From a virus (Duplodnaviria > Heunggongvirae > Uroviricota > Caudoviricetes): a stretch of 16,261 nt of DNA. Below the pieces are notes generated by a model, which did not search any database, was not told the DNA's origin, and was given only the letters and a program-made list of their open reading frames with translations. Shown here piece after piece: positions 1,325 through 16,261 of this stretch. Made by a program: the position numbers and the translations under genes. Positions within the stretch are counted from its first letter, which is position 1, and each line of letters opens with the position of its first letter. The stretch is from IMG/VR virus record IMGVR_UViG_2529292919_000026; one strand, 5' to 3'.

Positions 1325-2388
1325 TACCCGTCCAGAAGAAGACATTTTCACTGGCTGGTATGTCGCCAAAATCCAGCAATATGACGGCAAAGTCAGGCAT
1401 TAATACAGCAGATACAAGCAAAGTTTATCATTTGCTGGTGGTCGGAACGGATGCCTTAACCATACCAGAAATCTCGGGCGATGATATTAGCATTGAGAAG
1501 GTCAGCGGCTGCGCCAGAAAATTTCTGGTCGTAGATGATGTCTTCCGCTCGCGTAGTGACTCCACAAAAACCTTCATCCGCGCGCGTGACGTTAACGAAA
1601 TGAGCGCGATGTACTGTGCATCTGGTGCTTCCAATAGCGAGTTTTCGGAGTCCATAAAAAAGAGCTTGCCGTTATGCGGCAACACGGTTTATGGTTATAA
1701 GGCACCTCATAAAACGGGTGCCGGGATTGGCGTCCTGGTAAATCGAATGGCGACATATGACGCGCCGAGCGTCTTTTTTTATGTCGTAGGTCTGACTCAC
1801 CCATTTTTTGGGCGTTGGTGTATAATCCAGCGCCTTTGTCAATCAATGGTGGCTCAGGCAGGGGCTTCTTCGGAAGCGCCGGTATCCATTCGAGCCGGTT
1901 ACGCCAACCCTGTCTGGGCTACCACCAGCGAAATTGGCGTTTCCGGTGGTAGCGTTACATGCTATCGAATGGAGGCTGCCACATGCTGGCTACTACCCCT
2001 ACCCAAAAACCGCAATTTATCTGGATTATCGCCGCAGTTCGCCGCGATTGCCCGACAATTACCGCCAGAATTCATCATATTGCTGCCGAGTCTGAACGCG
2101 ATGCTCGCCGTTCTCTGGTGCGCGATCACGTCTGCTTTTTTGCTGGTCGTATCCGCATGGAGGTGGCACATGATTAAAACCTACGATGTGCATATGGATC
2201 CCCTCGAACGCACAAGCCAGATCATCACACTGACAGAAGTGATTAACGACATTCTGGTGAGCAACTCTCCCTCACGAGACGAAAGACTGAAGGCGTTACT
2301 CGCGATATTGGATCTCGCCGTTCGTGACGTTCATTTCCTGCTGGAAGGTGGCGAAATGCCAGTAAAAACGGGGGCAACCAATGAATAA
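1321..2388 (+). CDS. hypothetical protein (355 aa)
   Basis: 355 codons without a stop in ~50% GC DNA is unlikely by chance. Start is coupled to the preceding gene by ATGA overlap. No recognisable domain. Contains a strong internal GGAGG-N5-ATG at 2160-2172 (see findings). Confidence 0.5.
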
Positions 2389-3658: not shown

Positions 3659-3742
3659 ATGATTACTAAAAATTTCCGACTGAATGCGCTGGCAAATAAG
3701 TATGCGTCAGCACTGTATAACCACATTACCTCCACCAGCGGC
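3659..3742 (+). pseudogene. N-terminal fragment (28 codons) of a small gene split by IS insertion
   Basis: GAGGA Shine-Dalgarno 7 nt upstream of ATG 3659. Reading frame MITKNFRLNALANKYASALYNHITSTSG runs into the IS left end. After removing the IS and one copy of the duplication the frame continues exactly into 5301-5558. Confidence 0.7.
3734..3742. repeat. left copy of 9-bp target-site duplication ACCAGCGGC
   Basis: Identical to 5292-5300. The last C is shared with the first base of the IS terminal repeat, so the junction is ambiguous by 1 nt. Confidence 0.75.
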
Positions 3743-3760
3743 TGTCTCTTATACACAAAT
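3742..3760 (+). repeat. IS left terminal inverted repeat (outside-end-like)
   Basis: CTGTCTCTTATACACAAAT, 17/19 match to Tn5 OE. Confidence 0.8.
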
Positions 3761-3906
3761 CCCCACCCGGGGATTTGTGATGTCTGTCAGTCTGCTTTAG
3801 GGGGACTCTTTCCATCCGGTAGTTTCCTTCCTCCCCGGCAGCGATTTTTTGAACTTTTTCCTCACCCGTTGATCTTCTCTTATATTTCATTTTCTTCGGG
3901 TCTGTT

Positions 3907-5280
3907 ATGGTACTTTCTGATTGTTATTCATGGGCTAACGAGCAGTTTGGACATGCCCGTCTCGGTGATCCGCGTCGTACACGACGCCTTGTGTCACTGG
4001 CCTCTTCTCTCGCTCAGCATGCAGGTCTTTCTATTGTGAAATCATCCCAGTCCACTGCTCAGGTTGAAGGTGCGTACCGCCTGATACGTAACCCGTCTGT
4101 GTCCCCGCAAGCCATTGCCGAAGCCGGATTTACCGCCACTGTAAGGGCATGTGAGGCTCATCCGCTGCTCCTCGCGCTGGAAGACACCACCACCATTAAC
4201 TTCAGTCACAGTACGGCATCTGATGACCTGGGGAATACCACCACTAACCCGAAGACGCGCGGGCTGCTGGCTCACTCTGTCCTGATGTACGCCCCCGACA
4301 GCGCCCTGCCAGTCGGTCTTATCGAACAGCAGCGCTGGAGTCGTGCCACGGACACCTACGGTGTTAAGCACCAGCGAAAAGAACGTCCCTATGAAGAAAA
4401 AGAAAGTTACCGCTGGCAGCAGGCTTCGGAGCGCATGGCCGAACGGCTGGGGGAGATACAGAAACGGGTAATCACTGTCTGTGACCGGGAAGCGGATATC
4501 TGGCATTACCTGCATTATAAAGTCAGCCACGGGCAGCGCTTCGTGGTGCGTGCAGCACAGAATCGCCGGCTGGAAGAAGCACCCGGCAAGCTCTTCGAAC
4601 TGCCGGAAGTCCTGGCAACCGCGGGAAGCCACACGCTGAATGTGATGCAAAAAGGCGGGCGGGCAGCCCGCCAGGCCCGGATGTTCATCAGTTACAGCGA
4701 AGTCAGCATAAAAAATCCCGACAACAGCGGCCAGGCGCTCCCGCTCACGTATGTCTGTTGCCGGGAGCAGGCAGAGGACGGCGCCTGCTGGCATCTGCTG
4801 ACGTCAGAAAAAGTGGCGAGTGCCGCCGATGCGCGACGTATCGTCAGCCATTACGAGCGACGCTGGCTGATAGAGGAATACCACAAGGCGTGGAAAAGTG
4901 GTGGTACATGTGTGGAATCGCTGCGAATGCAGACCCGGGATAACCTCGAGCGCATGGTGGTTATCAAGGCGTTTATCGCGGTGCGGGTGCTGGGCCTGCG
5001 GCAGGGCGGTATCAGTGAAGAAACACAAAATGACAGCTGTGAGAAAATACTGACGCCGACAGAGTGGAAACTGCTGTGGGTTAAGCTGGAAGGAAAACCG
5101 CTTCCGTCACAGATGCCGACACTGAAATGGGCCTGTCTGAAACTGGCGAAACTGGGGCGATGGCATGACAGCAAACGCACCGGTCGCCCCGGTTGGGTAG
5201 TCATGTGGGATGGCTGGTTCAGACTTCAGGATATGGTTGAGGGTTACCTGGTGATGAAGTCTCTTGATCAGGAGATCTGA
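3907..5280 (+). CDS. tnp: IS4-family DDE transposase, Tn5 Tnp-like (457 aa)
   Basis: Clear collinear similarity to Tn5 transposase: GDPRRT.RLV, EGAYR.IRNP.VS, L(A/L)(I/L)EDTT, VCDREADI, RFVVR, RW.IEE(F/Y)HKAWK(T/S)G and DNLERMV...A(V/I)R.L.LR blocks, including the catalytic D, D, E positions. Stop codon lies inside the right terminal repeat. Confidence 0.85.
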   Translation: MVLSDCYSWANEQFGHARLGDPRRTRRLVSLASSLAQHAGLSIVKSSQSTAQVEGAYRLIRNPSVSPQAIAEAGFTATVRACEAHPLLLALEDTTTINFSHSTASDDLGNTTTNPKTRGLLAHSVLMYAPDSALPVGLIEQQRWSRATDTYGVKHQRKERPYEEKESYRWQQASERMAERLGEIQKRVITVCDREADIWHYLHYKVSHGQRFVVRAAQNRRLEEAPGKLFELPEVLATAGSHTLNVMQKGGRAARQARMFISYSEVSIKNPDNSGQALPLTYVCCREQAEDGACWHLLTSEKVASAADARRIVSHYERRWLIEEYHKAWKSGGTCVESLRMQTRDNLERMVVIKAFIAVRVLGLRQGGISEETQNDSCEKILTPTEWKLLWVKLEGKPLPSQMPTLKWACLKLAKLGRWHDSKRTGRPGWVVMWDGWFRLQDMVEGYLVMKSLDQEI

Positions 5281-5291
5281 TCAAGAGACAG
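5273..5291 (-). repeat. IS right terminal inverted repeat (inside-end-type)
   Basis: Reverse complement is CTGTCTCTTGATCAGATCT, 19/19 with Tn5 IE. Confidence 0.85.
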
Positions 5292-5558: not shown

Positions 5559-5922
5559 AAATGCAGAAATGGCGCTTAGCTCCGCAATCGGAGAGCAGGT
5601 GGCAAAGATTGCTGGTGCTGTGTGGATTCATAACCTTCATTCTACTGGTGAAGAGAAAATGGCAATTCAGACGCCAGAGGGACGCACTATTACTACATCT
5701 CTGAAGCCGTCAGATGTTTGTGATCTGATTTGCGCATTCATGTACCCAGCAATGAGGACTGTCCACGGCGATAAGTGGAAACTTGCGACAACCGCTGAAT
5801 TTGATATGTGGCTAAACAATGATGGCATGCTGACTGATTACGGAATAACCAAGTGGCAGATGCTGGTTAGCCATATCGCAAACGCTATAGACCACGTGGG
5901 GTACGGTGATGCGAAACATTGA
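5551..5922 (+). CDS. hypothetical protein (123 aa)
   Basis: GGAGG at 5541-5545, five nt before ATG 5551. Start overlaps the stop of the split gene (ATGCGTGA). Its 3' end overlaps the primase start. Confidence 0.55.
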   Translation: MRENAEMALSSAIGEQVAKIAGAVWIHNLHSTGEEKMAIQTPEGRTITTSLKPSDVCDLICAFMYPAMRTVHGDKWKLATTAEFDMWLNNDGMLTDYGITKWQMLVSHIANAIDHVGYGDAKH

Positions 5923-8665
5923 TCTTATCCGTCAGGTTATCAGTGCGTCTGAAAACAACTGGCCTCATGTGCTGGGCTGCCTGAACATAAATGTCCCTGA
6001 CTCTCCGCGCCGTCATGCTCCCTGCCCTGCATGTGGGGGCAAAGATCGATTCCGGTTCGATGACAACGGGCGCGGTAGCTTCATCTGTAATCAGTGCGGC
6101 GCTGGTGATGGGCTGGATTTAATTAAACGCGTAAATAACTGCGACACAACAGAGGCGGCGCTGCTTGCCGCTGATGTTCTGGGTATTGATTACCGGACAA
6201 CGGAAACACCAGAAGCCACCAGCCAGAAACGGGAACAACTGGAAACCGAGCGCCAGCAACGCGAACAGGAGCGCCTGAAAAGGGCGGAGAAGGACGAACA
6301 ACAAAGACGGGATACGTTTTCCCGTCAGTTTGATGACATGCGCAGAAAGGCTGTAAACGGCAAATCTGATTATCTGGTTGCGAAAGGGGTAGGTGATTTT
6401 ACATTCCCCGTGTTGCCCGATGGATCTCTGTTGCTGGCGCTGGTGGATAAATCCGGCGCAGTCACAGCAGCACAGACTATTACCTCACATGGTGAAAAAA
6501 GACTCCTGACAGGTTCAGCAAAGCGGGGGGCATATCACGCCATAAACGCACCAGAAACAACACAGAGCATCTTAATCGCAGAAGGGCTGGCAACGGCATT
6601 ATCTGCCCATTTAATTCGTCCAGAGGCGCTGACAGTGGCGGCGATTGATGCCGGGAACCTGTTATATGTCGCCCAGGTACTGCGGGATAAATTTCCTTCA
6701 GCACAAATCATCATTGCTGCGGATAACGACCACAGCGAAGGAAGACAAAACACGGGGAGAATAGCAGCAGAAAAAGCAGCTTTATCTGTTTCTGGATGGG
6801 TGGCATTACCCCCGACAGGTCACAAAGCAGACTGGAATGATTACCACCAAAAACACGGCATTAAATGCGCCACAGAAGCGTTCAATAAGTCAATGTACCA
6901 ACCACAGGGTAATGGCGTGAAACAGGAGCCACAGACCATTGAGGGAAGCGATTTTAAGGTTATGGATACCGACCCACTGAAACCAAGAATAGAAAGCCGC
7001 GAGGATGGTATTTATTGGGTATCTCCGAGAGCTGACAGCCAGAGTGGAGAAATCATCAATAACGAAAGCTGGTTATGTTCTCCGTTAAGCGTTATCGGTA
7101 CTGGCAGAGACGATAAAGACCAGTATCTCATTCTTCGCTGGCTGTCGTTTGGTTCTGAAACGCCGACAACCGCTGCCATTCCACTGGCTGATATTGGTGA
7201 ACGTGAAGGATGGCGCACACTTAAAGCTGGTGGGGTAAATGTCACGACCAAAAGCAGCCTCAGAGCAATACTGGCAGACTGGCTACAACGCAGTGGCTCT
7301 CGTGAATTGTGGCGTGTTGCTCATGCCACTGGCTGGCAATGCGGAGCGTACATCATGCCTGATGGGGAAATCATCGGAACACCTGAAAATCCTGTGCTGT
7401 TCAGCGGGAGAAGCTCAGCCGCAGCCGGATATACCGTCTCAGGGAGCGCGCAAAGCTGGCGTGATAACGTGGCGCGTCTGGCCTTTGGTAACTATTCAAT
7501 GATGACCGGGATCGGCGCAGCACTGGCAGCACCATTGATTGGGCTGGTGGGCGCTGACGGGTTCGGCATTCATTTCTATGAGCAGTCGAGCGCAGGTAAG
7601 ACCACCACGGCAAACGTGGCGAGCAGCTTATACGGCAACCCTGATTTACTGCGGCTGACGTGGTACGGAACCGCGCTGGGGCTGGCAAATGAGGCCGCCG
7701 CCCACAATGACGGACTAATGCCGCTTGATGAAGTTGGTCAGGGCGCTGATCCTGTCAGCGTTTCACAGTCTGCCTATGCGTTATTTAACGGTGTAGGGAA
7801 ACTGCAAGGCGCTAAAGATGGTGGAAACCGGGATCTAAAACGCTGGCGTACAGTGGCAATCAGCACCGGAGAAATGGATTTAGAAACATTTATCGCTACT
7901 TCCGGGCGAAAAACCAAAGCCGGGCAACTGGTGCGACTGCTGAATATTCCGTTGAGTAAAGCAGTACGCTTTCACGATTACCAGAACGGAAAACAGCACG
8001 CAGACGCACTGAAAGACGCTTACCAGCATCACCATGGCGCAGCCGGGCGTGAGTGGATTAAATGGCTGGCAGACCACCAGCAACAGGCTATTAAAACTGT
8101 TCGTGATTGCGAAAGCAGATGGAGAAGCCTGATCCCACCCGATTATGGTGAGCAGGTTCACCGTGTAGCCGCGCGATTTGCCATTCTGGAGGCCGCATTG
8201 TTGTTAGGCGAGGTTGTAACAGGCTGGGATGCTCAGACATGCCGTGATGCGATACAGCACAGCTATAACGCATGGTTGCGCGAGTTCGGCACAGGTAACA
8301 AAGAGCATCAGCAGATTATTGAACAAACGGAGGCATTTCTTAATGCCTATGGGCTTAGCCGTTTTGCACCATTTCCATACAGCCCGGCAGATTTGCCCAT
8401 CAAAGATTTAGCCGGATACCGTCAGCGTGGAGAACATGACGAAAGCCCAATGATTTTCTACACATTCCCGGCCACATTTGAAAAGGAGATCGCATGTGGT
8501 TTCAACGCAAAACAGTTTGCTGAAGTGTTGAAAAAAGCCGGGATGCTAACCCCACCAAACAGCGGTCGTGGATACCAAAGAAAATCACCACGTATTCAGG
8601 GACGACAAATAAACGTTTATGTACTCAATTACCAGCCAGGAGATTATAACTCATCTGAAGAATGA
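5909..8665 (+). CDS. primase, zinc-ribbon + Toprim + DUF927/P4-alpha-like NTP-binding domain (about 918 aa)
   Basis: N-terminal CPACGGKDRFRF...FICNQCG zinc ribbon; Toprim-like acidic motifs (ILIAEGLATA, IIIAADNDHSEG); P-loop-like EQSSAGKTT near residue 555. Immediately followed by an iteron array. ATG at 5909 is preferred over the GTG at 5906 reported by the track. Confidence 0.8.
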   Translation: MRNIDLIRQVISASENNWPHVLGCLNINVPDSPRRHAPCPACGGKDRFRFDDNGRGSFICNQCGAGDGLDLIKRVNNCDTTEAALLAADVLGIDYRTTETPEATSQKREQLETERQQREQERLKRAEKDEQQRRDTFSRQFDDMRRKAVNGKSDYLVAKGVGDFTFPVLPDGSLLLALVDKSGAVTAAQTITSHGEKRLLTGSAKRGAYHAINAPETTQSILIAEGLATALSAHLIRPEALTVAAIDAGNLLYVAQVLRDKFPSAQIIIAADNDHSEGRQNTGRIAAEKAALSVSGWVALPPTGHKADWNDYHQKHGIKCATEAFNKSMYQPQGNGVKQEPQTIEGSDFKVMDTDPLKPRIESREDGIYWVSPRADSQSGEIINNESWLCSPLSVIGTGRDDKDQYLILRWLSFGSETPTTAAIPLADIGEREGWRTLKAGGVNVTTKSSLRAILADWLQRSGSRELWRVAHATGWQCGAYIMPDGEIIGTPENPVLFSGRSSAAAGYTVSGSAQSWRDNVARLAFGNYSMMTGIGAALAAPLIGLVGADGFGIHFYEQSSAGKTTTANVASSLYGNPDLLRLTWYGTALGLANEAAAHNDGLMPLDEVGQGADPVSVSQSAYALFNGVGKLQGAKDGGNRDLKRWRTVAISTGEMDLETFIATSGRKTKAGQLVRLLNIPLSKAVRFHDYQNGKQHADALKDAYQHHHGAAGREWIKWLADHQQQAIKTVRDCESRWRSLIPPDYGEQVHRVAARFAILEAALLLGEVVTGWDAQTCRDAIQHSYNAWLREFGTGNKEHQQIIEQTEAFLNAYGLSRFAPFPYSPADLPIKDLAGYRQRGEHDESPMIFYTFPATFEKEIACGFNAKQFAEVLKKAGMLTPPNSGRGYQRKSPRIQGRQINVYVLNYQPGDYNSSEE

Positions 8666-8684: not shown

Positions 8685-8730
8685 AAAGGTGTTGGTTCAG
8701 TTGGTTCAGTTGGTTCAATTTGTAAAGAGT
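8685..8730 (+). repeat. 46-bp segment perfectly inverted-repeated at 15899-15944
   Basis: AAAAGGTGTTGGTTCAGTTGGTTCAGTTGGTTCAATTTGTAAAGAG is the exact reverse complement of 15899-15944. Confidence 0.9.
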
Positions 8731-8802
8731 ATTGTTTTATAAGGATTTTATTCTTTTTATTGAACCAACACTGAACCAACAACACGGTATTTTGAACCAA
8801 CA
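8692..8802. promoter_or_regulatory. iteron array, candidate replication origin (copy A)
   Basis: Three tandem GTTGGTTCA 9-mers (8692-8718), an AT-rich ~43-bp spacer, then three spaced inverted copies TGAACCAAC (8762-8770, 8773-8781, 8794-8802). Sits directly 3' of the primase gene. Confidence 0.65.
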
Positions 8803-8922: not shown

Positions 8923-9122
8923 CGTAGTTCAAAAAACAGCCTCTGAGAAGTTGTTATGCCTGTTCAGCAAACCATCCGCATAGCTGATCGCGAATCAAAT
9001 TACCAATGGAGCCAGAATCAAGGGCAGAACTGAAAAGCGCCTGCCGTGAAGAGTAATGCGATACCATAAATATAGTTTTTAGAGTCCATAAAAAACCTGT
9101 CAAAACCTGACACACAGAACGA

Positions 9123-9154
9123 TGCCACCAGCTACTGAGCGGTGGCATTTTTTT
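9123..9154 (+). terminator. rho-independent terminator (orphan, no upstream + strand CDS)
   Basis: Stem TGCCACC/GGTGGCA with 11-nt loop, followed by seven T residues (9148-9154). Confidence 0.55.
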
Positions 9155-9249
9155 GTGCTATTTGTTTCATATTTTGCAATTACGATGATGAATATTGCGA
9201 TTTGTGAAACTATAATAACTGTTGTTTTATACAGTTCTAAGGGGGCGTT

Positions 9250-9411
9250 ATGGCTATTTCAGTAAATCCGGTATTGATAAGTGAGAAGCAAATGGAAGCG
9301 ATAAAGAAAATTCAGGAAGAGCAGCGTAAAAAATCAGGAATTGGAGTAGCGCCAACTCTGCATGAAATTGCACGAGGGTTAATAGATAAGGCGCTGGCAG
9401 GCTGTATGTGA
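9250..9411 (+). CDS. small hypothetical protein (53 aa), below the track's length cut-off
   Basis: AAGGGGG Shine-Dalgarno 6 nt upstream of ATG 9250; TATAAT hexamer at 9211-9216. Sequence MAISVNPVLISEKQMEAIKKIQEEQRKKSGIGVAPTLHEIARGLIDKALAGCM, possibly a small DNA-binding protein. Confidence 0.45.
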   Translation: MAISVNPVLISEKQMEAIKKIQEEQRKKSGIGVAPTLHEIARGLIDKALAGCM

Positions 9412-9427
9412 AAATGGATGGCATCGC

Positions 9428-9889
9428 ATGGAACTAAAATTTATTGATAACCCTGTGCGATTACAGGCCTTTCTTAACGAGCCAGGCAATACCGAAAATA
9501 TTGTTGAGCCGGGGCACACGTACTACATCAAGCCTGATGCGGTATATCTCGGCATCTACGAAGGATTAGTGCTGGCTGGCGTTCATGAAGTGCGTAACTT
9601 CTGGCATAGCGTTGTTGAATGCCATGCGGTGTACGACCCCGGATTCCGTGGTGAATATGCACTGCAAGGGCATCGATTATTCTGCAAATGGCTTCTCGAA
9701 AACTCACCATTCCTTAACAGCATCACCATGGTTCCTGACACCACCAAATACGGACGGGCAATTATCCGTTTGCTTGGCGCTACCCGTGTTGGTCACCTTG
9801 ATGATGCTTATATCAGATGTGGTAAACCCGTCGGCGTAACGCTTTATCAGTTAACTCGGCAACAATATAAGGAATTCAGCGAATGTTAA
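9428..9889 (+). CDS. protein at the gene-14 position of a P22-like ejection-protein cluster (153 aa)
   Basis: Assigned by position and size only: it directly precedes three coupled ejection-protein-like genes, and its stop overlaps the next start. Confidence 0.35.
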   Translation: MELKFIDNPVRLQAFLNEPGNTENIVEPGHTYYIKPDAVYLGIYEGLVLAGVHEVRNFWHSVVECHAVYDPGFRGEYALQGHRLFCKWLLENSPFLNSITMVPDTTKYGRAIIRLLGATRVGHLDDAYIRCGKPVGVTLYQLTRQQYKEFSEC

Positions 9890-10560
9890 TTACCCATATA
9901 GCTCATAAACATCTCAATCGTGCCGTATACGAAAAAGGCGGTGATGGTGGTGCCTCTAAAGCTCAGGCGAAGGCCCAGCAGCAGGCAATTGATTTGCAGC
10001 GCGAGCAGTGGAATACGGTGATGAATAATCTCAAGCCGTATGCAGAAGTCGGATTGCCTGCTTTACAACAACTGCAAGGACTGATGACTCTGGAAGGGCA
10101 GAATAAAGCCGCGAATGATTTCTTTGGTTCTGGTTTATATAAAACACAGGCAGATCAGGCCCGTTATCAGAACCTTGTCTCAGCAGAAGCTACCGGGGGG
10201 CTTGGCTCAACAGCTACCAGTAACCAGTTATCTTCCATTGCGCCCATGCTTTATAACAATTGGCTCAGTGGGCAAATGCAAAATTATGGAAACCTGCTAA
10301 ATGTCGGGATGAATGCGGCATCAGGGCAGGCAACGGCAGGGCAAAACTACGCCAATAATACCGGACAACTCTTGCAGGGGCTTGGCGCTATTCGTGCAGG
10401 TCAGGCGCAGCAGCCATCCAGTCTTGCGCGTGGTATTGGTGGGGCAGCATCAGGCGCTTTAGCGGGTGCGCAACTTGGTTCCGTTGTTCCTGGAATAGGA
10501 ACTGCGGCCGGCGCTATTGGTGGTGGGCTTATTGGTCTTGTTGGGGGGCTTGGATTCTAA
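9883..10560 (+). CDS. P22 gp7-like DNA ejection (internal virion) protein (225 aa)
   Basis: Size close to P22 gp7 (about 229 aa from memory); EKGGDGG segment near the N terminus; Gln/Ala/Gly-rich low-complexity body; glycine-zipper hydrophobic C terminus GGLIGLVGGLGF. First of three coupled genes in P22 order. Confidence 0.55.
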   Translation: MLITHIAHKHLNRAVYEKGGDGGASKAQAKAQQQAIDLQREQWNTVMNNLKPYAEVGLPALQQLQGLMTLEGQNKAANDFFGSGLYKTQADQARYQNLVSAEATGGLGSTATSNQLSSIAPMLYNNWLSGQMQNYGNLLNVGMNAASGQATAGQNYANNTGQLLQGLGAIRAGQAQQPSSLARGIGGAASGALAGAQLGSVVPGIGTAAGAIGGGLIGLVGGLGF

Positions 10561-11981
10561 TGGCGACATGGCAACTTGGCGGGCTGCCTAGCATGGCACC
10601 GCAAAATGATAATGCTCCTCGTTCTTCCGTTCCTCAGCCTGTGCAGTATCAGCAGCAGCCAAACGTAGGTTTAATGGCGCTACAGGGGCTAAGAGGCGTT
10701 GCTGAGATTAATCAGCAGGCACGTCAACAACAGCGTAAATCAGAGTTTCAGAAAGCATATGCCGGGGCTTTTGAGTCTGGAGACAGAAACAAAATGCGCA
10801 GTCTTATTTCTGAGTATCCAGAAGAATTTGAAAGCGTTCAGAAAGGGATGGGCTTTATTGATGACGACCAGAGAAATTCTATTGGTCATCTTGCGACTAG
10901 TGCTCAAATCGCATCTTCGCTCGGAACTGGGGCATTTGGAAAATTCATAGCAGATAACGAAGATGAAATGCGTCGCTTGGGAATTTCTCCTGAGTCTGTT
11001 GCCGAAATGCATGTTAATGATCCACAGGGATTCCAGCGGCTTGCTGGTAGTATGGCACTGTTTTCTCTCGGTCATGAGAAGTATTTCGATATCAAAGATC
11101 AAATGGAAGGTCGGGATATTGAGCGAGGCAGGCTGGCAGAGACAATCCGCAGCAATCAGGCTGGCGAAGCACTTCAGGCGAGAGGGCAGGATATTAGCCG
11201 AGCAAATGCGTTAACGTCAGCATATGCACCAACAGCAGCAATGCAGAATTACAATCAGTACGCTCAAATGTTAAAGGCGGATCCAGAGGGGGCGGCGGCA
11301 TTTGCGGCAGCGGCTGGAATTAATACAAACGCCAAAAAATTAATGAGTGTTAGAGAAAACGATGATGGCACTGTCACAAAATACTACACAGACGGAAGTG
11401 AAGAGCAGGGAAAACTAAACCAGCCAATATCTGGAGATGGGTTTCGTCCAATAGCTTTGCCAACAGCCCAAAAGATCATGGAAAAGTCGCCAGAAGGGGC
11501 TAAAAAAGCTGCTGGATTTGCATACAGGGTTAGGGATGCTCTTGATTCAATAGATACACTGAAAGACCAGCTTAGCCCACAGCGAGTGGCGATCATTAAT
11601 AATGCTTTGGGTAATGGGACGCTGGCTAACTTAACGCTCAGCCCAACAGAGCAGCAATACGTTGTTAATGCTAATGACGCAATAATGGCAATACTCCGTC
11701 AGGAAACAGGGGCAGCTATCGTACCTGCTGAAATGTCAAAATATTATCAAATGTATTTCCCTCAGCCTGGCGACTCCACAAAAACCATTGATACCAAGCG
11801 CCGGAAGATGGAAAACCAGTTCAATTCGCTGAAAGCTGCTTCTGGTCGAGCTTATGATGCTTTGCGGGTTATTTCAGCAGTTGACAGAGGAACGTCTTCT
11901 TCGTCGCAGACATTGCCGCAATCTGAGCAGGTATCACAGCCAGCAGCCAGCAGTAACTTTTCTTCACTATGGGGTGATTAA
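10560..11981 (+). CDS. P22 gp20-like DNA ejection protein (473 aa)
   Basis: Size close to P22 gp20 (about 471 aa from memory). Start overlaps the upstream stop (TAATGG) and the stop overlaps the next start. Confidence 0.55.
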   Translation: MATWQLGGLPSMAPQNDNAPRSSVPQPVQYQQQPNVGLMALQGLRGVAEINQQARQQQRKSEFQKAYAGAFESGDRNKMRSLISEYPEEFESVQKGMGFIDDDQRNSIGHLATSAQIASSLGTGAFGKFIADNEDEMRRLGISPESVAEMHVNDPQGFQRLAGSMALFSLGHEKYFDIKDQMEGRDIERGRLAETIRSNQAGEALQARGQDISRANALTSAYAPTAAMQNYNQYAQMLKADPEGAAAFAAAAGINTNAKKLMSVRENDDGTVTKYYTDGSEEQGKLNQPISGDGFRPIALPTAQKIMEKSPEGAKKAAGFAYRVRDALDSIDTLKDQLSPQRVAIINNALGNGTLANLTLSPTEQQYVVNANDAIMAILRQETGAAIVPAEMSKYYQMYFPQPGDSTKTIDTKRRKMENQFNSLKAASGRAYDALRVISAVDRGTSSSSQTLPQSEQVSQPAASSNFSSLWGD

Positions 11982-14086
11982 TGGCTAAAGCATGGAAAGA
12001 TGTTATCGCCTCTCCACAGTATCAGGCGTTAGCACCAGAACAAAAAGCGCAGGCTCAGGAGCAATACTTCAATGAAGTCGTTGCCCCGCAAGCCGGAGAA
12101 AGTGTAGAGCAGGCTAAGCAGGCTTTTTATGCTGCCTATCCACTACCATCAACGAATGAAATAGACCGATCCCAATCAGCAACTCAAAATATTCAACATA
12201 CATCATCTGATAATTCTCTTGCGTCAGGGTATGCAAAGTTAGCTACTCAGCAAAGAGAGGGGCTTGAGCGTTCAGCAGAACAGGGAGCCAGTCTTGGGGC
12301 TGCGATGCGCGATGCTATAACAGGCGAAAGCCGAATGACTTCAGAGATGGAGAGACTGCAAAATGTCGCCTCTGCCCCAGAATTGAACTCACTAAGCATG
12401 GATGCCCTAAAGGCTGGATGGTCCCAACTTTTCGGCTCTGACGCGTCTCAGGAAAAGATTCTTCAGGGAATGGGGGCGACATTAAGGCAGGATGAGAAGG
12501 GGAATACTATCGTTTCTCTGCCATCAGGTGATTATGCCCTGAACAAGCCGGGTTTATCACCGCAAGACCTGACTTCGTTTCTTGCTAATGCGTTGGCGTT
12601 TACACCAGCGGGCAGGGCTGGAACGGTGCTTGGTGCCATAGGAAAATCAGCAGCTACAGATTTAGCACTACAGGGAGCCACCAGCCTTGCTGGTGGAGAA
12701 GATATTGATCCGTTACAAACGGTAATTTCTGCTGGCATTGGTGGTATTGGTAAGGGGCTGGAAAATACAGCGAGTGCGGTTTCGAGGGCTGTTCGTGGTG
12801 ATATGTCGCCTGAAGCAAAGGCTGCTGTCGACTTTGCATCGGAAAGAAATCTGCCGTTAATGACCAGTGACATGCTGAAAGATAAAACCTTTATGCAGAG
12901 TCAGGCTCAGACATTAGGCGAAAGAGTTCCTTTTTTTGGAACCGGTAAGAATCGGCTGAATCAACAACAAGCACGAGAAAATTTAGTCAGAACATTTAGC
13001 GATGGTCTGGGTGGCATTTCTGATAAACAGCTTTATGAATCTGCGACTAAAGGGCAACAAAAATTCATTGAGGCAGCAGGAAAGCGATATAACCGCATAA
13101 TTGACGCTATGGGGGATACCCCTGTCGATCTCTCAAACACGGTAAAAGCTATCGACAATCAGATTGCCGTGTTAAGCCGCCCGGGCAAATCTCAGGATAG
13201 AGCCGCGGTAAAAGTCTTGCAGCAATTTAAAGACGATATCACCAGCGGACCAAATGACCTGCGCCTGGCGAGGGAAAACAGAACCGATCTTCGAAAGCGA
13301 TTTATTGCGTCATCTGACACTGTTGATAAAGATACGCTCCAGAAAGCCAGCGATATTATCTACAAGGCATATACGGCGGATATGAAAAAAGCCGTAGCCA
13401 AAAATCTTGGAGCAGACGAAGCCATTAATATGGCAAGGGTTGATCGCTCATGGTCTAAATTCAATGACATGATGGGAAGAACGCGCGTTCAAAAGGCAAT
13501 AGCCAGCGGCAAGGCCACGCCTGAGGATGTAACAAAACTCGTTTTTAGCCAAAGCCCATCAGAACGTTCTCAGCTTTACAGGCTTCTGGATGACAATGGT
13601 AGGCAAAACGCACGAGCAGCCATAGTTCAGAATGCTGTAGATAAGGCGACTGATCCGTCTGGAAATATCAGTGTTGAGAAGTTTATTAATGCGTTACACC
13701 GGAACAGGAAGCAATCAGCAACTTTCTTTAAAGGCGTACATGGGAAGGAACTGGACGGCGTTATTAAATACCTCAACGATACAAGACACGCGGCAAAAGC
13801 GAACGTTCAAAACTTAAATGGTCAGCAGCTTTATGGATTGTTAGTTGGTGGTGGCATCATAAACGCAGCAGTATTAGCGGGGATGCTAAAAACGGCTGCG
13901 TTTGTTGTTCCTGCTGCTGGTGCCGTAGGCGGAGCAGCGAAGGCATACGAAACCCCTGTTATACGAAATGCCTTGTTACGTCTGGCAAATACGCCAAAAG
14001 GTAGCACAGCATATGACAGAGCGATCAGTACGGTCACACAATCGCTCACCAGAGTCGCACAGGCATCACAAAAAGAAGCTCAATAA
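11981..14086 (+). CDS. P22 gp16-like DNA ejection protein (701 aa)
   Basis: Third coupled gene; large Ala/Gln-rich protein with hydrophobic Gly/Ala-rich segment near the C terminus (GGGIINAAVLAGMLKTAAFVVPAAGAVGGAA). Longer than P22 gp16 (about 609 aa from memory). Confidence 0.5.
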   Translation: MAKAWKDVIASPQYQALAPEQKAQAQEQYFNEVVAPQAGESVEQAKQAFYAAYPLPSTNEIDRSQSATQNIQHTSSDNSLASGYAKLATQQREGLERSAEQGASLGAAMRDAITGESRMTSEMERLQNVASAPELNSLSMDALKAGWSQLFGSDASQEKILQGMGATLRQDEKGNTIVSLPSGDYALNKPGLSPQDLTSFLANALAFTPAGRAGTVLGAIGKSAATDLALQGATSLAGGEDIDPLQTVISAGIGGIGKGLENTASAVSRAVRGDMSPEAKAAVDFASERNLPLMTSDMLKDKTFMQSQAQTLGERVPFFGTGKNRLNQQQARENLVRTFSDGLGGISDKQLYESATKGQQKFIEAAGKRYNRIIDAMGDTPVDLSNTVKAIDNQIAVLSRPGKSQDRAAVKVLQQFKDDITSGPNDLRLARENRTDLRKRFIASSDTVDKDTLQKASDIIYKAYTADMKKAVAKNLGADEAINMARVDRSWSKFNDMMGRTRVQKAIASGKATPEDVTKLVFSQSPSERSQLYRLLDDNGRQNARAAIVQNAVDKATDPSGNISVEKFINALHRNRKQSATFFKGVHGKELDGVIKYLNDTRHAAKANVQNLNGQQLYGLLVGGGIINAAVLAGMLKTAAFVVPAAGAVGGAAKAYETPVIRNALLRLANTPKGSTAYDRAISTVTQSLTRVAQASQKEAQ

Positions 14087-14978: not shown

Positions 14979-15179
14979 TCATTTTGTGACCAATGCGATA
15001 AGTAGCGGGATAAGAATTGATAAAATCAACAGGACGATGATCCACTTTTGATTCTCGTCCATCTTATCTGCTAGGCGACGCTCCATTCCGTGCATATCAC
15101 CGCGAATGGCAATCATCTCATTGCGAACATCCGAGAAGTGGTTGGCTTGATGTTCAATGTGTGGCGTTCTGCCTTTCAT
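14979..15179 (-). CDS. small protein with C-terminal transmembrane helix (66 aa)
   Basis: GGTGAGGA Shine-Dalgarno 7 nt upstream of ATG on the minus strand. C-terminal WIIVLLILSILIPLLIALV hydrophobic segment. Confidence 0.5.
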   Translation of the reverse strand: MKGRTPHIEHQANHFSDVRNEMIAIRGDMHGMERRLADKMDENQKWIIVLLILSILIPLLIALVTK

Positions 15180-15258
15180 GTCTGATCCTCACCTATCGTC
15201 ACCACCTGATGGTGTATAAAGGTATTAGCCCAAGCAGCTTTCCAATGGGCACTCATGT

Positions 15259-15714
15259 TTATACGCTGACCTTACAATCAATCACCGCTTTTAACTTTTC
15301 AGCATTGCTTCCCTGACGCTTCCACGCGCTGTAAATATCTTTATCCCACGCTTTACCAGCTTTTGTTTGATAGCCTGCTTCATTGATCCGTTCAGCTATC
15401 ACACGCCCATTATCAAATCCCTGTTGGATGGTATCGGCAATGATCTTTATAACTGCCGTTTCGTTATATGGTTTTGGTGGGATGTTCGGCTTTCCGGCAA
15501 TAAGCGACGCAGCGGCTTTTTCCATGCGCTCCACCAGCCCAAGCATTCGTGAATCAATAGACTTTTCCGGCTGCCCCAGCTTCATGCGAATCGCATCAAC
15601 AAGCCAAGAGGTTTTATCTCCTCCAGAAGCGAGAACAGACCGATTAAACTCATCCTGCAATTCAGATGGGATGCGGAACGCGATCAGATTAGATTTGCTC
15701 ATTGCAAAGACCAT
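15259..15714 (-). CDS. ribbon-helix-helix (Arc/Mnt/CopG-type) DNA-binding regulator with C-terminal extension
   Basis: N-terminal SNLIAFRIPSELQDEFNRSVLASGGDKTSWLVDAIRMKL fits the beta-strand/helix/helix pattern of RHH repressors (compare the FNLRWP strand of P22 Arc/Mnt). True start may be the second ATG (15702). Confidence 0.5.
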   Translation of the reverse strand: MVFAMSKSNLIAFRIPSELQDEFNRSVLASGGDKTSWLVDAIRMKLGQPEKSIDSRMLGLVERMEKAAASLIAGKPNIPPKPYNETAVIKIIADTIQQGFDNGRVIAERINEAGYQTKAGKAWDKDIYSAWKRQGSNAEKLKAVIDCKVSV

Positions 15715-15816
15715 ATCAGTGAGTAATATCCATACAGTATACCACTGTATAACACTGTTATACGCTCAAATATCAGCCAGAAAATAACAGACCAATCACA
15801 AATCTATCGCTGTGTT

Positions 15817-15937
15817 GTTGGTTCAGAGCTGGGCTGTGTTGGTTCAAAATGAGTTGATGTTGGTTCAATATTTTAGAAAAAACACAATAAAAACAACGCT
15901 CTTTACAAATTGAACCAACTGAACCAACTGAACCAAC
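15817..15937. promoter_or_regulatory. iteron array, candidate replication origin (copy B, inverted relative to copy A)
   Basis: Three spaced GTTGGTTCA 9-mers (15817-15825, 15838-15846, 15859-15867), an AT-rich spacer, then three tandem TGAACCAAC (15911-15937). Confidence 0.6.
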
Positions 15938-15944
15938 ACCTTTT
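15899..15944 (-). repeat. second copy of the 46-bp perfect inverted repeat
   Basis: Exact reverse complement of 8685-8730. Confidence 0.9.
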
Positions 15945-15973
15945 TGCTTATCTATATAATCTGAGAGGCAGAA

Positions 15974-16261
15974 ATGATAAAGGACAGGAAAGCTGAAGAG
16001 CTGGAGTCAAAAGGGCTATACCGGAGAGCTGCCGCACGATGGGCAGAAGTCATGATGCTGGCAGATGGCGATAAAGAACGTGAACATGCAGCAAACAGAC
16101 GCTCTGAATGTATCCGTAAGGCGGCACGCCCACCAGCAACTACAGACAGATTCGGAGATTTAAGACAGGCAGTTAAGCGGACTCATTCGGCTCTTGGTAT
16201 GGATGAGGAAGCGAGAGGGTACTTCAGGCGTTATCGCGATAAAGATTGCCAGAGACAGTAA
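15974..16261 (+). CDS. PerC-like small transcriptional regulator (95 aa)
   Basis: N-terminal KAEELESKGLYRRAAARWAEVM resembles the conserved N-terminal signature I recall for PerC/Pch-family activators found on prophages and P4-like islands. GAGAGG Shine-Dalgarno and TATAAT at 15955-15960 upstream. Recalled from memory, not searched. Confidence 0.45.
   Translation: MIKDRKAEELESKGLYRRAAARWAEVMMLADGDKEREHAANRRSECIRKAARPPATTDRFGDLRQAVKRTHSALGMDEEARGYFRRYRDKDCQRQ

Follow-up and report, generated by a model that had tools for sequence, protein, structure and literature searches.

Two iteron modules in inverted orientation, 7.0 kb apart, were found in the window (the whole 16,261-nt stretch of DNA analyzed here), which covers part of an E. 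coli phage-inducible chromosomal island (PICI) resembling EcCIMP1. Module A lies behind the gene of a replication initiator, here called Pri-Rep, and module B ends 36 nt before the ATG of perC (Table 1). All 12 exact copies of TGAACCAAC in the window are confined to these two clusters, six in each. We propose that Pri-Rep would bind both modules via its C-terminal domain, as SaPI Reps do, and that modules A and B would act jointly as a two-part origin, like ori and crr of P4. Rep occupancy on induction would most likely occlude the perC promoter, stimulation being less likely, and perC expression would be tied to the replication state of the satellite. Taken as a whole statement, this explanation commands slightly more of our belief than of our doubt. 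We are highly confident of the identity of the parts (perC gene, Rep-binding modules, and Pri-Rep) and evenly divided on the two-part-origin role of the modules. Rep control of perC is put forward tentatively, and it is mechanistically reasonable by analogy with the initiator-repressed promoters of iteron plasmids.

Table 1. Features of the window and their positions
Feature	Position	Strand	Description
Pri-Rep gene	5906..8665	+	Fused primase-helicase replication initiator, 919 aa: Zn-ribbon primase, Toprim, DUF927 helicase
Origin module A	8691..8801		Three tandem GTTGGTTCA at 8691-8717, then TGAACCAAC at 8761, 8772, and 8793
Inter-module segment	8802..15816		53-aa ORF, DUF2824, P22-like ejection genes (+), then variable minus-strand genes
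151-aa ORF	15259-15714	-	Divergent from perC
Module B	15817..15937		Six TGAACCAAC-type iterons, probable inverted copy of the A-type module
Candidate perC promoter/leader	15938..15973	+	36 nt: T-rich stretch, TATA-rich box TATCTATATAAT at 15949-15960, Shine-Dalgarno sequence (SD) GAGAGG at 15963-15968
perC	15974..16261	+	95 aa; final gene of the element on its attR side

An EcCIMP1-like island

In the published description of PICIs, the origin comes directly after the pri-rep gene and has an AT-rich region flanked by two sets of iterons; PerC alleles are among the genes of some E. coli PICIs (PMC6092414). EcCIMP1 is a PICI of E. coli MP1 that is mobilized by the P22-like phage Kapi1; its helper-dependent excision, replication, and transfer were demonstrated with this phage (Pick, Stadel and Raivio 2025, PMC11773190). 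The window shares with EcCIMP1 the gene order, near-identical antA, ash, DUF2824, and ejection-protein genes, and a terminal PerC-family gene. The 919-aa TOPRIM/DUF927 primase of the MP1 locus (L016) is 99% identical to that of the window, and the same 12 TGAACCAAC iterons are arranged there in two modules. The two elements differ in the gene beside module B (the 151-aa ORF in the window, alpA_1 in EcCIMP1), in their integration site (yicC/dinD for L001, the close match of the window, and tRNA-Thr near proA for EcCIMP1), and in an ISEc13 insertion, which is present in the window copy, unlike in EcCIMP1.

When the 1-kb region around module B and perC was searched, it matched the chromosomes of 553 of the 5,426 complete E. 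coli genomes. No match was obtained among phage records and only two among records labeled as plasmids, indicating that the element is chromosomal. Locus L001, which is 99.9% identical to the window, is an island of approximately 16.5 kb between yicC and dinD with the gene order integrase, small HTH gene, antA, ash, primase, ejection-protein genes, and perC. The counterparts of its integrase (5117-6376 in L001 coordinates) and of its HTH gene (7457-7675) lie outside the window. Through L001, the following structural traits of a PICI were found: an integrase at one end, an AlpA-type HTH gene, mostly rightward genes, a size of about 15 kb, and a specific chromosomal att site. Loci L002, L003, L016, and L017 are integrated at tRNA-Thr/proA.

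The ISEc13 copy (IS4 family) occupies positions 3742-5291, is 99.9% identical to plasmid copies, and disrupts a conserved small gene of PICIs. Of the ORF at 3659-4039, no more than the first 28 aa match the intact EcCIMP1 homologue, and the island copy in the window may be impaired by the insertion. Rfam matches above the gathering score were obtained for isrK (1702-1779, plus strand, 67 bits) and C4 antisense RNA (1842-1929, plus strand, 79.5 bits), both inside an "ash family" ORF (1321-2388) downstream of antA. The arrangement resembles that of a P1/P7-type c4-icd-ant immunity cassette, here within a PICI. The same Rfam search returned nothing in or near module B and perC.

Two inverted iteron modules and their candidate reader

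Module B consists of three opposite-strand iterons (GTTGGTTCA) that start at 15817, 15838, and 15859 with a spacing of 21 bp, a 43-nt spacer with 21% G+C (15868-15910), and a head-to-tail triplet of TGAACCAAC (15911-15919, 15920-15928, and 15929-15937). Module A starts 26 nt past the Pri-Rep stop codon (8665), and its three minus-strand and three plus-strand iterons are likewise separated by 43 nt, with 16% G+C. When one mismatch was allowed, 17 matches to TGAACCAAC were counted in the window against 3.8 expected, and none of 200 shuffled sequences reached 17. The original prediction had correctly placed three tandem iterons ending at 15937, and all its coordinates for the array were accurate; it saw only half of the array, however, and missed the three opposite-strand copies, the second module at 8691-8801, and the null outcome of the promoter scan described below.

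With two opposed iteron sets around an AT-rich region behind a pri-rep gene, module A has the composition of a PICI origin and, judged from the sequence, is in the canonical position just 3' of rep. Its geometry recurs in L002, L003, and L016 and also in the undivided origins of L010, L011, and L012, where it makes up the left half. These undivided origins contain 11 to 12 iterons with the geometry ---+++++-+++ between the primase gene and the next gene. L012 uses the same iteron as the window, and its perC begins 57 nt past the last iteron; in L010 and L011, the undivided origin is followed by ssb-perC. Sakai Sp7 and L004 also show an origin followed by perC or ssb-perC, with other iterons. 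A genome-wide scan with a PerC alignment returned only 10 loci, and the comparative sample is thus small. The order of origin and perC or ssb-perC in the undivided relatives means that the adjacency of the two is inherited synteny, family-wide in PICIs.

The exact stretch of 46 nt common to modules A and B comprises the tandem triplet and flanking bases. We considered that module B might be the mere right half of a split undivided origin, which proved only partly right: module B aligned with a score of 138 as the reverse complement of an A-type module and with a score of 78 to the right half of the L012 origin. The alignment thus favors an inverted A-type module, and module B may be such a module joined to the perC-side flank.

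The iterons of module B were identical between the window and L002 at 54 of 54 positions, whereas the spacers were identical at 39 of 67 (58%; Fisher 4e-9). A comparison of modules A and B within the same element gave a similar picture, with 54 of 54 identical positions in the iterons and 32 of 67 (48%) in the spacers. Since the spacers have diverged and the iterons are intact, selection on binding sites is the likely cause, not recent duplication or gene conversion; the latter is an improbable source of the iteron identity because it would have homogenized the spacers too. This indicates that module B is a Rep-binding module under selection and that the iterons are selected in both modules.

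Pri-Rep matches Pfam families PF08273, PF13362, and PF06048 (DUF927, E = 6e-47). Its residues 403-814 match the SaPIbov1 replication initiator/helicase (PDB 8tch; phmmer E = 5.2e-12), and it thus possesses, by homology, a helicase core of the SaPI Rep type. The C-terminal winged-helix domain of SaPI Rep reads iterons placed just after rep (PMC9371898). Across the loci compared, five variants of the Pri-Rep tail correspond to five iteron types. The tail YQRKSPRIQGRQ goes with iteron TGAACCAAC in the window and in L012 (Enterobacter adelaidei; primase 81% identical), and the tail YQGRV-REGGRQ goes with GAGACAACA in L010 and L011 (primase 80% identical). Different tails accompany TGCGGGTTA in Sakai Sp7 (L005), CGGGATAT in L004, and GGGACAAG in L007. 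A comparison of four close primases showed 40 substitutions that distinguish the two iteron types, 19 of them in aa 801-919 of 919. Since the iterons covary with the Pri-Rep tail and not with PerC or the 151-aa protein, we infer that the iterons are read by the C-terminal region of Pri-Rep, namely, its variable tail (approximately aa 845-919).

Two AlphaFold models of the tail had low confidence (pLDDT 53 and 57); in these models, secondary-structure elements in the order strand, helix, helix, hairpin would fit a winged helix. Searches with Foldseek and PDB profiles gave no significant match for the tail fold, and the best superposition, to 8tch, was nonsignificant (TM 0.45). Two other proteins were considered as binders of the repeats and were rejected. 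The gene of the divergent 151-aa protein, which belongs to no Pfam family and has only a weak PHROG match, is absent from L002, L003, and L016, where the iterons are identical. PerC alleles do not track the iterons across loci: the EcCIMP1/L003 PerC is 94% identical to that of L010, whose element uses GAGACAACA, and only 49% identical to that of the window, although both elements use TGAACCAAC.

The gene content beside module B differs between L001 and the window on the one hand and L002, L003, and L016 on the other. In the segment between the modules, four plus-strand genes (9428-14086) match DUF2824/phrog_651 and P22-type ejection proteins (phrog_598, phrog_917, and phrog_770; Pfam Inj_translocase). 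Ejection proteins of its own that match those of a P22-like helper are an unusual cargo for a satellite, and they lie exactly between the origin modules. The plus-strand ORF for 53 aa (9250-9411) has no family match, shows 50 to 98% identity among relatives, and is the next gene behind the origin or perC in L001 to L004, L006, L012, L015, and L016. Upstream of this ORF, a conserved noncoding stretch of approximately 450 nt ends in a terminator-like hairpin near 9122-9155. Inversion of the 7-kb segment between the modules was also considered and rejected, as a synthetic query for the inverted junction was covered to at least 80% in 0 of 549 matching genomes. Just upstream of the 151-aa minus-strand ORF, at 15735-15765, overlapping palindromes were noted (ACAGTATACCACTGT and GTATAACA/TGTTATAC); they look like operators of the 151-aa gene and unrelated to the iterons.

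The junction of module B and perC

The product of perC matched the Pfam profile PerC (PF06069) with E = 3.1e-33 and 114.3 bits (cut-off, 22.6). Its residues 1-89 cover positions 1-89 of the 90-position profile, which is the full length, and the family assignment of the original prediction thus held from end to end. In RefSeq, the product is labeled as a PerC family regulator, with 500+ genomes. Its identity to PchE of O157 Sakai is 56%, and its YRRAAARW core is invariant and common to four other alleles. PerC of the EPEC plasmid pEAF and PchA to PchE of EHEC belong to the same Pfam family over the full length and have the same core. PchE is also encoded on a PICI-type island (Sp7/OI-51), directly downstream of the iteron origin of that island. 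The perC gene appears mosaic: module B and approximately the first 28 codons (15974-16057) are about 88 to 98% identical between the window and L003 and L016, and beyond this point the identity is only about 50%. This suggests a recombination joint within the conserved YRRAAARW region.

The effect on LEE1 differs between alleles, and PerC itself activates. EcCIMP1_025, the only tested PerC allele from the EcCIMP1 PICI type, silences LEE1-lux in Citrobacter rodentium, and the PerC-like genes of EcCIEDL933 and EcCICFT073 are reported to have no effect on LEE1 fusions (PMC11773190). The window PerC is approximately 49% identical to EcCIMP1_025. The proposal that it activates host virulence loci is therefore unsafe.

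TATAAT at 15955-15960, whose position the original prediction had right, begins 17 nt past the last iteron, and perC starts with its ATG at 15974. It had further been suggested that the -35 region overlaps the last iteron. The geometry of this suggestion stood, since 16 to 18 nt upstream corresponds to 15931-15938 and thus to the last iteron, but the promoter itself is doubtful, as no usable -35 is present: the best candidate, CCAACA, matches at three of six positions with a 16-nt spacer. Scanning of 15100-16261 for a consensus sigma-70 promoter detected none. In a crude position-weight scan, the TATAAT candidate scored 5.1, with a perfect -10 and a bad -35, and other candidates within the array scored equally well or better. 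Locus L002 has TATAGT in place of TATAAT. Transcription starting approximately 7 nt after TATAAT would begin inside the SD GAGAGG; an overlapping -10, for instance TATCTA (15949-15954), would be a better fit. Altogether, the evidence for TATAAT as the perC promoter is weak.

The location of a promoter is nevertheless constrained. Because opposite-strand genes precede perC in the lineage of the window, its promoter must be located within module B or immediately behind it. The gap between the last iteron and the perC ATG measures only 36 nt, and the -35 for any -10 in this gap sits inside the tandem iterons. Sakai Sp7 shows a closely similar TATA-rich box, SD, and ATG after its last iteron, and there both the iteron and the first downstream gene differ.

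The iteron-perC junction was found in 508 of the 5,426 complete E. coli genomes (approximately 9%), and the 3' end of the cognate primase gene together with module A in 364. In L017 (E. coli EC5502), an island that is EcCIMP1-like in other respects, the replication gene is replaced by that of a DUF5906 primase with different iterons, and module A is missing, but intact module B and perC are kept with 99% identity. L017 and the 508 versus 364 genomes imply that module B and perC can persist without the cognate Rep, at least in the short term. The recombinants without the cognate Rep look recent, and they are not proof that module B is unconstrained. The region at 6679-10270 of L017 has its own repeats, CCTGTACCA, clustered at 9060-9150 and again at 10170-10270, about 1 kb away, with two genes enclosed between the clusters. 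Its layout is thus that of a second, independent two-cluster origin, with an orphan TGAACCAAC module B before perC.

Alternative readings and known systems

Module B could be purely replicative, either as the second half of the origin or as a titration or handcuffing site like P1 incA, with perC indifferent to Rep. We take this seriously while doubting it somewhat. It would account for the order of origin and perC or ssb-perC in L004, L005, L010, L011, and L012 regardless of the iteron, and for the total of 12 iterons in undivided (L010, L012) as well as divided (window) origins. The weakness of the promoter evidence and the retention of perC and module B in L017 without the cognate Rep also speak for it. 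It is harder to reconcile with the opposite-strand genes, which force the perC promoter into or right next to module B, where, with a gap of only 36 nt, Rep bound as a multimer would scarcely leave the polymerase footprint free. Conservation of the box past the last iteron across different iteron types is a further point against it. If Rep does not gate perC, the finding is an ordinary one, with rep, origin, and perC in the order usual for PICIs. If Rep does gate perC, a helper phage that induces the satellite would thereby reset a host virulence regulator. In an extended version of this proposal, the split origin brackets helper-derived ejection cargo and the distal module is a Rep-controlled perC operator that switches the level of a LEE-silencing or host-regulating PerC on helper induction. 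This version, which would wire satellite replication directly to the control of host virulence genes, seems unlikely to us.

Two further readings are very improbable. The repeats might be operators of an ordinary transcription factor, either the 151-aa protein, which has an RHH-like N terminus, or PerC acting on its own gene. The array does sit between divergent genes, and operator arrays of RHH repressors resemble tandem 9-bp repeats. This reading is, however, largely refuted by the locus comparisons: an identical 9-mer array directly follows the primase gene, the iterons are identical in L002, L003, and L016, which have no 151-aa gene, and they track the primase tail, whereas PerC alleles do not track them. 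Alternatively, module B might be a nonfunctional relic, left by a rearrangement in which part of the origin was duplicated and inverted, as its better alignment to an inverted A-type module (138 versus 78) and the orphan copy in L017 could suggest. Decay of this kind is hardly compatible with six perfect iterons next to spacers that are down to 58% identity between lineages and 48% between modules A and B, and we give it very little credence. The preferred reading remains that of two Rep-binding modules, the second of which may also govern perC.

PICIs with a pri-rep gene, an iteron origin, and PerC alleles next to the replication module were already known, and an origin in two modules 7 kb apart appears to be undescribed. 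The EcCIMP1 paper (PMC11773190) does not contain the word "iteron" and mentions neither a two-module origin nor the junction of iterons and start codon. The origins of SaPIs and Gram-negative PICIs resemble the present one in the helicase homologous to SaPIbov1 Rep, in the Rep-specific iterons immediately 3' of rep, and in the AT-rich region flanked by two iteron sets of opposite orientation (Fillol-Salom 2018, PMC6092414; Qiao 2022, PMC9371898). They differ in that the iterons of SaPIs are penta- or hexanucleotides (PMC9371898) and those described here are 9-mers. Moreover, the SaPI and PICI origins are contiguous, whereas here two complete modules are 7 kb apart, the second of them directly beside a regulator gene, at the island's far end.

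Satellite P4 has, like this element, two clusters of one initiator-binding repeat that are kilobases apart, one of them right after the gene of a primase-helicase. In the P4 record, crr (4291-4590) follows alpha, and ori (9310-9413) is found 4.7 kb from it, in the divergent regulatory region between ORF88 and sid. P4 replication requires both ori and crr. The P4 alpha protein is a primase-helicase of a different type, whereas the initiator here is of the DUF927/SaPI-Rep type, and Pfam and PDB searches with Pri-Rep found no P4 alpha structure or family match. Furthermore, crr consists of two direct 120-bp repeats, and the modules here are inverted and single copy. Two separated repeat clusters with one after the initiator gene are thus shared with P4, and the alpha-type initiator is not; by this analogy, the element may work like P4 but is not a P4-type member. 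A two-module origin would represent a second, independent design of the P4 ori/crr type, built on a SaPI-type Rep.

Iteron plasmids offer a parallel to the junction with perC. Promoters inside iterons are found in P1 (repA/incC, with the separate incA iterons), pSC101, R6K, and F. In these plasmids, the initiator binds repeats that overlap the promoter and represses it, and extra, distant iteron clusters modulate replication. The gene controlled in this way is that of the initiator (autoregulation), whereas here it would be that of a separate regulator, PerC.
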